Shown here: positions 9,689-10,094 of the stretch, in pieces
Numbering within the stretch: position 1 is the stretch's first letter
Layout: every line of letters begins with the position of its first letter
DNA from: Escherichia coli
GTDB lineage: Bacteria > Pseudomonadota > Gammaproteobacteria > Enterobacterales > Enterobacteriaceae
Length of the DNA: 64,000 bases
Assembly: GCF_045037415.1 (NCBI RefSeq)
Contig: NZ_CP173438.1
Reading direction: 5' to 3' (one strand)
Made by a program: the position numbers and the translations under genes
The notes under the pieces: generated by a model
The model's database searches: none
Told to the model about the DNA's origin: nothing
The model's input: only the letters and a program-made list of their open reading frames with translations

Positions 9689-9931
9689 AAATCATACTGC
9701 CTGTGGATGTGGTGTTGTAACGTTAAATTTTTGTGCCAATCCCTGGGGATGATACAGCGGTATATTTAAACAATTTTAGCGGGAAATACTCCCAACCAGG
9801 CGCGGCGAAGAATAGTTTTTCGATTTACCGCGTAAATGCAGTCAGTATGACAGCACCTGAAGCGCAATTTAAACGCTTATAACGTTTTAAAGCAAGAAGG
9901 GATCTAAAAACCAGAGGTATATAGCGATAAG

Positions 9932-10015
9932 AAATCACCAACCAGTATAAAACACTATTTCAATGAAAAAGACATGGCTAATCATGCGAACAAAAAATCA
10001 CCAACCATTGTAAAA
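9932..10015. repeat. Two 21-bp imperfect direct repeats (AAATCACCAACCAGTATAAAA / AAATCACCAACCATTGTAAAA) spaced 63 bp apart, upstream of brnQ
   Basis: Seen directly: 9932..9952 and 9995..10015 share 18 of 21 positions; they lie in the phoR-brnQ intergenic region. Confidence 0.6.
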
Positions 10016-10038
10016 TCTAACGCCCGTATTTCGACTGC

Positions 10039-10067
10039 AAAGAAAATAAGCCAGCATCGGCTGGCTT
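10039..10067 (-). terminator. Putative rho-independent terminator downstream of phoR
   Basis: Inverted repeat AAGCCAGC-ATCG-GCTGGCTT at 10048..10067, followed on the minus strand by a T-rich run (ATTTTCTTT), 28 bp past the phoR stop. Confidence 0.55.
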
Positions 10068-10094
10068 ATGGCAATAAAAGATGACAAAGGCGAA

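Follow-up and report, generated by a model that had tools for sequence, protein, structure and literature searches.

A direct-repeat pair upstream of brnQ in Escherichia coli: sites for a regulator or similar linkers?

Introduction

The window analysed here, a stretch of 64,000 nt of Escherichia coli DNA (contig NZ_CP173438.1), contains phoB, phoR (11390-10095), brnQ (9688-8369) and proY, in that order and all on the minus strand, with phoR and brnQ separated by an intergenic gap (9689-10094) that, as first described, is 406 bp long. The gap is present in 5424 of 5426 complete genomes at 95-100% identity, and has no annotated feature within it, either among the RefSeq rows listed or in MG1655. 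Two similar short sequences in this gap, upstream of brnQ, had been noticed by inspection, and the first-pass annotation proposed that they bind a regulator cooperatively, with Lrp as a reasonable guess, or that they are a duplicated promoter element or a small-RNA feature. The question raised by this locus is therefore whether the two copies function as a pair, and if not, how a promoter region came to have two such similar sequences.

Results

The repeat pair

Both repeats were found where they had been placed (9932-9952 and 9995-10015), but 19 of their 21 bases are identical, rather than 18 as originally counted, and the similarity extends over 24 nt, with 21 of 24 positions matching between 9929-9952 and 9992-10015. 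Numbered from the brnQ transcription start site (TSS), the distal copy A (9992-10015, minus strand; -157 to -134) has the sense sequence TTTTACAATGGTTGGTGATTTTTT and the proximal copy B (9929-9952, minus strand; -94 to -71) the sense sequence TTTTATACTGGTTGGTGATTTCTT. The spacing of 63 bp from start to start, about six helical turns, was confirmed. With the 21-nt coordinates, copy A is 307-327 nt and copy B 244-264 nt upstream of the brnQ ATG (9688). The pair has an exact 13-nt core, AAATCACCAACCA; the repeated core shared by copies A and B is GGTTGGTGATTT, both copies carry the stretch GGTTGGTGA, which is separate from the -92 box described below, and the repeat can be written in motif form as TGGTTGGTGATTT. 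In K-12, the two repeat cores are at U00096.3 419264-419287 and 419327-419350, and copy A has the sequence TTTTACAACGATTGGTGATTTTTT.

Of 1000 dinucleotide shuffles of the 406-bp gap, none reached a match of 21/24 and 4 contained an exact 13-nt repeat. In the 64-kb window this is the sole pair with at least 21/24 identity at a distance of 24-120 bp, and only 1 of 100 block shuffles generated one. Given this rarity, the repeat is real, beyond chance under a random-sequence model. Outside the 24-nt core, however, the likeness of the 63-nt units is at chance level, the remaining 27 nt per unit downstream of the core scoring 8.0 versus a shuffle mean of 7.8. A diverged or ancient tandem duplication of a 63-bp unit was therefore rejected, as the similarity is confined to the core. 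A dispersed repeat family was also rejected: within the window, the 13-mer has five other near-matches, each inside a long ORF. The 90-nt region that includes the pair is found at one place per genome in 5423 genomes. To our knowledge, the core has no convincing resemblance to the motifs of NtrC, Fis, IHF, CRP, PhoB, TyrR, TrpR, MetR or PurR, or to Chi.

Location relative to the brnQ promoter

A single brnQ TSS, at NC_000913.2 418645 with 54 reads, is listed for MG1655 in the supplement of Kim et al. 2012 (PMC3415461), with a 170 nt 5′-UTR and an upstream sequence that ends ...TTGCTTTAAAACGTTATAAGCGTTTAAATTGCGCTTCA. In the same study, the brnQ TSS of K. pneumoniae is at the homologous promoter, followed by a 179-nt 5′-UTR (PMC3415461). 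The Cappable-seq GTF of Ettwiller et al. 2016 (PMC4782308) lists 418645 independently, the next start being 418738, and its list has no sense-strand TSS between 416464 and 418645. This TSS, documented by two published maps, corresponds to 9858 (minus strand) in the window and is the only mapped start upstream of +94. It is preceded by a sigma-70 core promoter (9866-9895, minus strand), with a -35 element TTGCTT at 9895-9890 (-37 to -32) and a -10 element TAAATT at 9871-9866 (-13 to -8). On the distal side, the hairpin of the phoR intrinsic terminator (10046-10069, minus strand; -211 to -188) lies upstream of both copies and is the region's only helix with strong covariation; when the whole gap was screened with RNAalifold and a column-pair covariation scan, this terminator alone was supported. 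In K-12, both copies are thus untranscribed DNA upstream of the brnQ promoter.

Several additional features are apparent within the promoter and the transcribed leader. The promoter spacer has an invariant palindrome-like sequence, AAACGTTATAAGCGTTT (9871-9887, minus strand; -29 to -13), with 5-bp arms AAACG/CGTTT, within a ~30-nt stretch, TTGCYTTWAAACGTTATAAGCGTTTAAATTG, that is almost invariant in 44 diverse Enterobacteriaceae. TTGCYTTWAAACGTTATAAGCGTTTAAATTG is unique in the window and, at blastn sensitivity, single-copy in E. coli genomes. As this constraint is far above that needed for a core promoter, AAACGTTATAAGCGTTT and the surrounding stretch look like an operator for a repressor. 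A Dam site, GATC at 9900-9903 (-45 to -42), within TAGATCCC, is directly upstream of the -35 element and is retained in nearly all of the 44 aligned species.

At the extreme 5′-end of the brnQ mRNA there is a hairpin, GTGCTGTC-ATACT-GACTGCAT (9836-9856, minus strand; +3 to +23). Some of its pairs covary across genera, for example as AU:15, GC:12 and GU:5 at one pair, and 62% of cells are paired in a fixed register because the register of the stem moves between genera. The second sense-strand Cappable-seq start, at 9765 (minus strand; K-12 v2 418738), is within the 5′-UTR, 77 nt before the brnQ ATG, and could reflect a second promoter or a processing-resistant end. Further downstream, the sequence TGGCACAAAAATTTAA (9723-9738, minus strand) is similar to a sigma-54 promoter in its -24 half, but its TGGCAC is not conserved beyond Escherichia. 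In genomic SELEX, RpoN holoenzyme plus NtrC is reported to give a peak in the phoR>brnQ spacer, at ~418832 (PMC8743547). Positioned 11-29 nt before the ATG, the C/A-rich and nearly invariant CAACACCACATCCACAGGC (9699-9717, minus strand; +142 to +160) is very probably a GcvB pairing site, as PMC9299463 lists brnQ among the targets of GcvB R1, with verification in Salmonella and conservation in E. coli.

Conservation of the intergenic region

To place the repeat in an evolutionary context, one genome per species was scanned, which provided 80 Enterobacteriaceae brnQ loci, none of them from Salmonella. phoR is upstream of brnQ in nearly all 80 loci and, despite variable linkers, the gap is ~404-417 bp long in most, which suggests that the spacing between conserved blocks matters. 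The alignments are mosaics in which nearly invariant blocks are separated by variable linkers. The blocks are TTTTTTGTTCGCATGATTAGCCATG, TCTGGTTTT..GATCCC, the ~30-nt promoter core, GGTAAATCGAAAAACTATTCTTCGCC and the leader sequence CAACACCACATCCACAGGC. Per-column conservation is 90-100% in the blocks that flank the repeat cores and 30-60% in the cores themselves, which fall in the least conserved columns of the 80 loci. Located between the two copies, TTTTTTGTTCGCATGATTAGCCATG (9973-9997, minus strand; -139 to -115) is nearly invariant across genera, is non-coding on both strands, does not resemble Lrp sites and has CTAAT on the opposite strand; the same is true, as regards near invariance and lack of likeness to Lrp sites, of the block GTTCGCATGATTAGCCATG (9973-9991, minus strand; -133 to -115).

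Identity between copies A and B, out of 24 positions, is 21 in the strain that provided the window, 19 in K-12, 19-20 in seven other sampled E. coli, and 17 in E. albertii and three other Escherichia species. At the 75 other loci the mean is 8.4, equal to that at other offsets and similar to the 8.2 of a cross-species control. In Citrobacter, the closest outgroup, the value is 12-14/24, mainly through shared T-runs. The similarity, at 17-21/24, is therefore a property of Escherichia, with background values elsewhere, and the non-conservation in related species by which the first-pass annotation had proposed to judge its reading is what was observed outside this genus. Copy A also behaves as a variable site within E. 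coli. Of the 9 differences that separate the window from K-12 over the 406-bp gap, 2 are inside the 24 nt of this copy, and among 5423 genomes the 90-nt region occurs as the exact window allele in 912 and as the K-12 allele in 344. Insertions occur in this gap. In an E. coli genome (NZ_CP136025.1), IS1A is inserted at the phoR-terminator side, with the query match stopping at window position ~10044, and in a cryptic-clade strain (Escherichia sp. MOD1-EC7003) the gap is 1147 bp long, with a REP-like insert upstream of the terminator. The repeat region is intact in both.

Lrp-like boxes

Lrp operator arrays, for example those of ilvIH and pap, contain multiple 15-bp boxes about three helical turns apart. 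PMC4474525, citing Cho 2008, includes brnQ-proY in the Lrp regulon, and the Lrp motif is described in bioRxiv 10.1101/276808. Neither Adams 2021 nor the ROSE paper mentions brnQ in its supplements, and PMC12708883 and PMC12617562 contain nothing on brnQ regulation. [quoted passage not shown] Matches with three or fewer mismatches cluster at two homologous positions, with centres at -92 and -61; this separation of 31 bp, or three helical turns, is the classical Lrp arrangement. The -92 box (9943-9957, minus strand; -99 to -85) has three or fewer mismatches in 27 of the 80 species; in E. coli it is TAGTGTTTTATACTG, with two mismatches (13/15). At the -61 position (9912-9926, minus strand; -68 to -54), 59 of the 80 species have three or fewer mismatches, the best matches having one, and the column profiles of these boxes retain the terminal TRG...CTR/TCTG and an A/T centre. 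In Escherichia, the -61 box is degenerate, CGCTATATACCTCTG having five mismatches, and the -92 box is better than that of Citrobacter. Decay at -61 with improvement at -92 is ordinary binding-site turnover.

The repeat only partly coincides with these boxes. The first 10 nt of copy B (TTTTATACTG) coincide with the last, proximal 10 nt of this -92 box, the remainder of the copy (GTTGGTGATTTCTT) is linker toward the -61 box, and the shared core GGTTGGTGATTT is outside the Lrp-like box. In the same register, copy A matches the consensus at 9 of 15 positions, and neither this register nor the -123 position is Lrp-like in any lineage among the 80 orthologous regions. The guess that Lrp acts at this promoter is supported in part, in that brnQ-proY is cited in the Lrp regulon and there are conserved boxes at -92 and -61, one of them overlapped for 10 nt by copy B. 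The repeat as a pair of cooperative sites is not supported, as copy A is a poor match and the two phased boxes, with their separation of 31 bp, do not correspond to copies A and B. An IUPAC scan of the 64-kb window found Lrp matches at a total number expected by chance, so the assignment to Lrp is based on positional conservation and the literature, not on the strength of the motif. With its invariant blocks and two Lrp-like boxes, the region from -40 to -190 constitutes a conserved regulatory platform of fixed length that Lrp probably binds.

Is the pair a pair of sites?

The alternative that survives best, and one we nevertheless consider unlikely, is that the two copies function in Escherichia, and there only, as a pair of same-face sites bound by one oligomeric regulator. 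In the most plausible model, the copies would occupy the first and third positions in an Lrp array spaced by ~31 bp (at about -154, -123, -92 and -61) and would help to wrap or loop the upstream DNA and so set the leucine/Lrp response of brnQ. The distance of 63 bp is 2 x 31.5 bp and is strictly kept in Escherichia, all species of which have at least 17/24 identity at exactly this spacing, again about six helical turns. Copy B overlaps a 13/15 consensus match, the conserved boxes at -92 and -61 are separated by 31 bp and precede a reported Lrp target, and it is specifically in Escherichia, the genus in which A and B are similar, that the -61 box is degenerate. Relative to Citrobacter, both segments have shifted toward the same 10-mer, TTGRTGATTT. 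This parallel change, the fixed 63 bp and the rarity of such a repeat in shuffled sequences fit the gain of two like sites for one factor, and so count against the explanation that we prefer. The motif alone predicts Lrp binding poorly, according to bioRxiv 10.1101/276808, and the weak consensus at copy A is thus compatible with Lrp binding. Against a same-face pair, copy A has only its 9/15 match and no Lrp-like counterpart in other genera, the -123 position is not Lrp-like, the shared core GGTTGGTGATTT is not part of the box, copy A is, within E. coli, a hotspot of polymorphism, and matches to the consensus occur window-wide at the frequency expected by chance. A conserved operator pair was rejected, as the two copies are not both conserved at orthologous promoters, and the cooperative pair first proposed does not accord with their lack of conservation outside Escherichia and the polymorphism of copy A.

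A more elaborate scenario, to which we give little credence, is that the Lrp array of brnQ was rewired in Escherichia. The ancestral -61 site would have decayed and copy A would have been gained, by copying part of the box plus linker, as a new same-face site 63 bp upstream of a strengthened -92 site. This would change the wrapping by Lrp, and hence the sign or leucine sensitivity of the response, with copy A alleles (19-21/24) tuning it between lineages.

It is comparably improbable that the similarity reflects DNA curvature or UP-like contacts with alpha-CTD, and so a need for phased T-tracts rather than for a specific sequence. Within each copy, a T4 tract and a T5-6 tract are indeed separated by about two turns, T-tracts are centred at -186.5, -155.5, -136.5, -110, -92.5 and -50, and the Fourier power at a 21-bp period is above that of 98.5% of shuffles. 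There is, however, no power at 10-11 bp, the 21-bp signal is lost once the ten periods tested are corrected for, conservation of the tract inside copy B is weak, and phasing of T-tracts leaves the identical G-rich core unexplained.

The prospects are slimmer still for additional upstream promoters, based on the -10-like hexamers TACAAT in copy A and TATACT in copy B. In the window strain, TCGAAA-16-TACAAT (9/12; 10034-10007, on the brnQ strand) was identified by the promoter scan and could start a ~310-nt leader, the differences from the K-12 allele being TACAAC to TACAAT and TCAAAA to TCGAAA. Most sampled E. coli have, however, TACAAC, without the critical final T, copy B has no usable -35 element, the hexamers are not conserved outside Escherichia, and one promoter-like match is within the shuffle expectation of 1.6. 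In K-12 there is no TSS at or between the copies by either of the two mapping methods, and their location upstream of the mapped TSS removes the duplicated promoter for K-12, and also the small-RNA and 5′-UTR readings.

An RNA-level role, whether through phoR read-through or as an antisense RNA, leader peptide or small RNA, is very improbable and largely refuted. Base pairing of the sense sequence, which is rich in G/U, to the CA-rich site close to the ribosome-binding site of brnQ is conceivable, and short ORFs overlap the region. The copies are, however, between a covariation-supported terminator and the mapped TSS, have no Rfam match and no conserved structure by RNAalifold, and are overlapped on both strands by unconserved ORFs of 7-55 codons. 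The Rfam scan, at a permissive E-value, returned only noise, namely MicC at 17.9 bits (gathering score 90) and a tmRNA fragment, and the small-RNA feature first suggested was accordingly abandoned. A leader peptide or small protein was rejected on the basis that ORFs on both strands, anchored on invariant ATGs, vary from 7 to 55 codons across species. Hairpins seen by eye in the variable segments were also rejected; they have no column-wise support and are upstream of the TSS.

Discussion

The repeat pair is most likely an ordinary by-product of evolution rather than two sites dedicated to a regulator. Specifically, we favour, with a confidence that is modest, an Escherichia-specific similarity of two weakly constrained linkers of a probably Lrp-bound platform, with no demonstrated role for the two copies as a pair. 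This explanation builds on direct observations, namely the position of the copies relative to the TSS, their non-conservation, the polymorphism and the positions of the Lrp-like boxes. The repeated core GGTTGGTGATTT occupies the least constrained linker segments of the platform, with only the first 10 nt of copy B belonging to a conserved element, the -92 box. The likeness of A and B presumably arose in the Escherichia lineage, by ordinary substitution or short-patch copying, from two T-rich backgrounds that, to judge from Citrobacter, were probably already about 55% alike. As a pair, the copies would then be dispensable for brnQ regulation, and their similarity most likely neutral. Regulation of brnQ would most likely be exerted through the conserved boxes, probably by Lrp, through the invariant promoter core, and by GcvB pairing at the CA-rich site.

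If the repeat is functional, it would be one more upstream pair of transcription-factor sites, and a small example of recent site gain within the array of a global regulator at the promoter of an amino-acid transporter gene. Its value is, however, mainly cartographic, in that the repeat is now placed on a map of brnQ control that includes the terminator, the Lrp-like platform, the promoter core, the 170-nt leader and the GcvB site. It also illustrates that a statistically striking short repeat can occupy the least constrained part of a conserved region; the promoter-spacer palindrome, the -124 block and the CA-rich GcvB site are the more constrained features of this gap.

As in the Lrp operator arrays of ilvIH and pap, the brnQ site is upstream of a sigma-70 promoter, here that of a gene for amino-acid transport that has been reported to be a target of Lrp, there are two conserved consensus-like boxes 31 bp apart, one of which is overlapped by copy B, and the 63-bp spacing of A and B is a multiple of the Lrp spacing. 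Unlike in these arrays, the repeated core at brnQ is not the Lrp box, copy A is neither consensus-like nor conserved, and the arrangement is known here from sequence. The region also resembles other enterobacterial promoters with turnover of transcription factor binding sites, in having a fixed length, conserved blocks and fast-changing linkers; compared with Citrobacter, Escherichia has a deteriorated -61 box and a better -92 box. Typical drift of spacers, however, produces less similarity than the 21/24 match, at a fixed phase, of the brnQ pair. As a short repeated sequence in an intergenic region, the pair is reminiscent of the REP/BIME, ERIC/IRU, Box C and RSA elements but, in contrast to these, it has only two copies, at one locus, and no palindromic structure, and unlike dispersed repeats it has no other intergenic copies in the window and occupies one place per genome.
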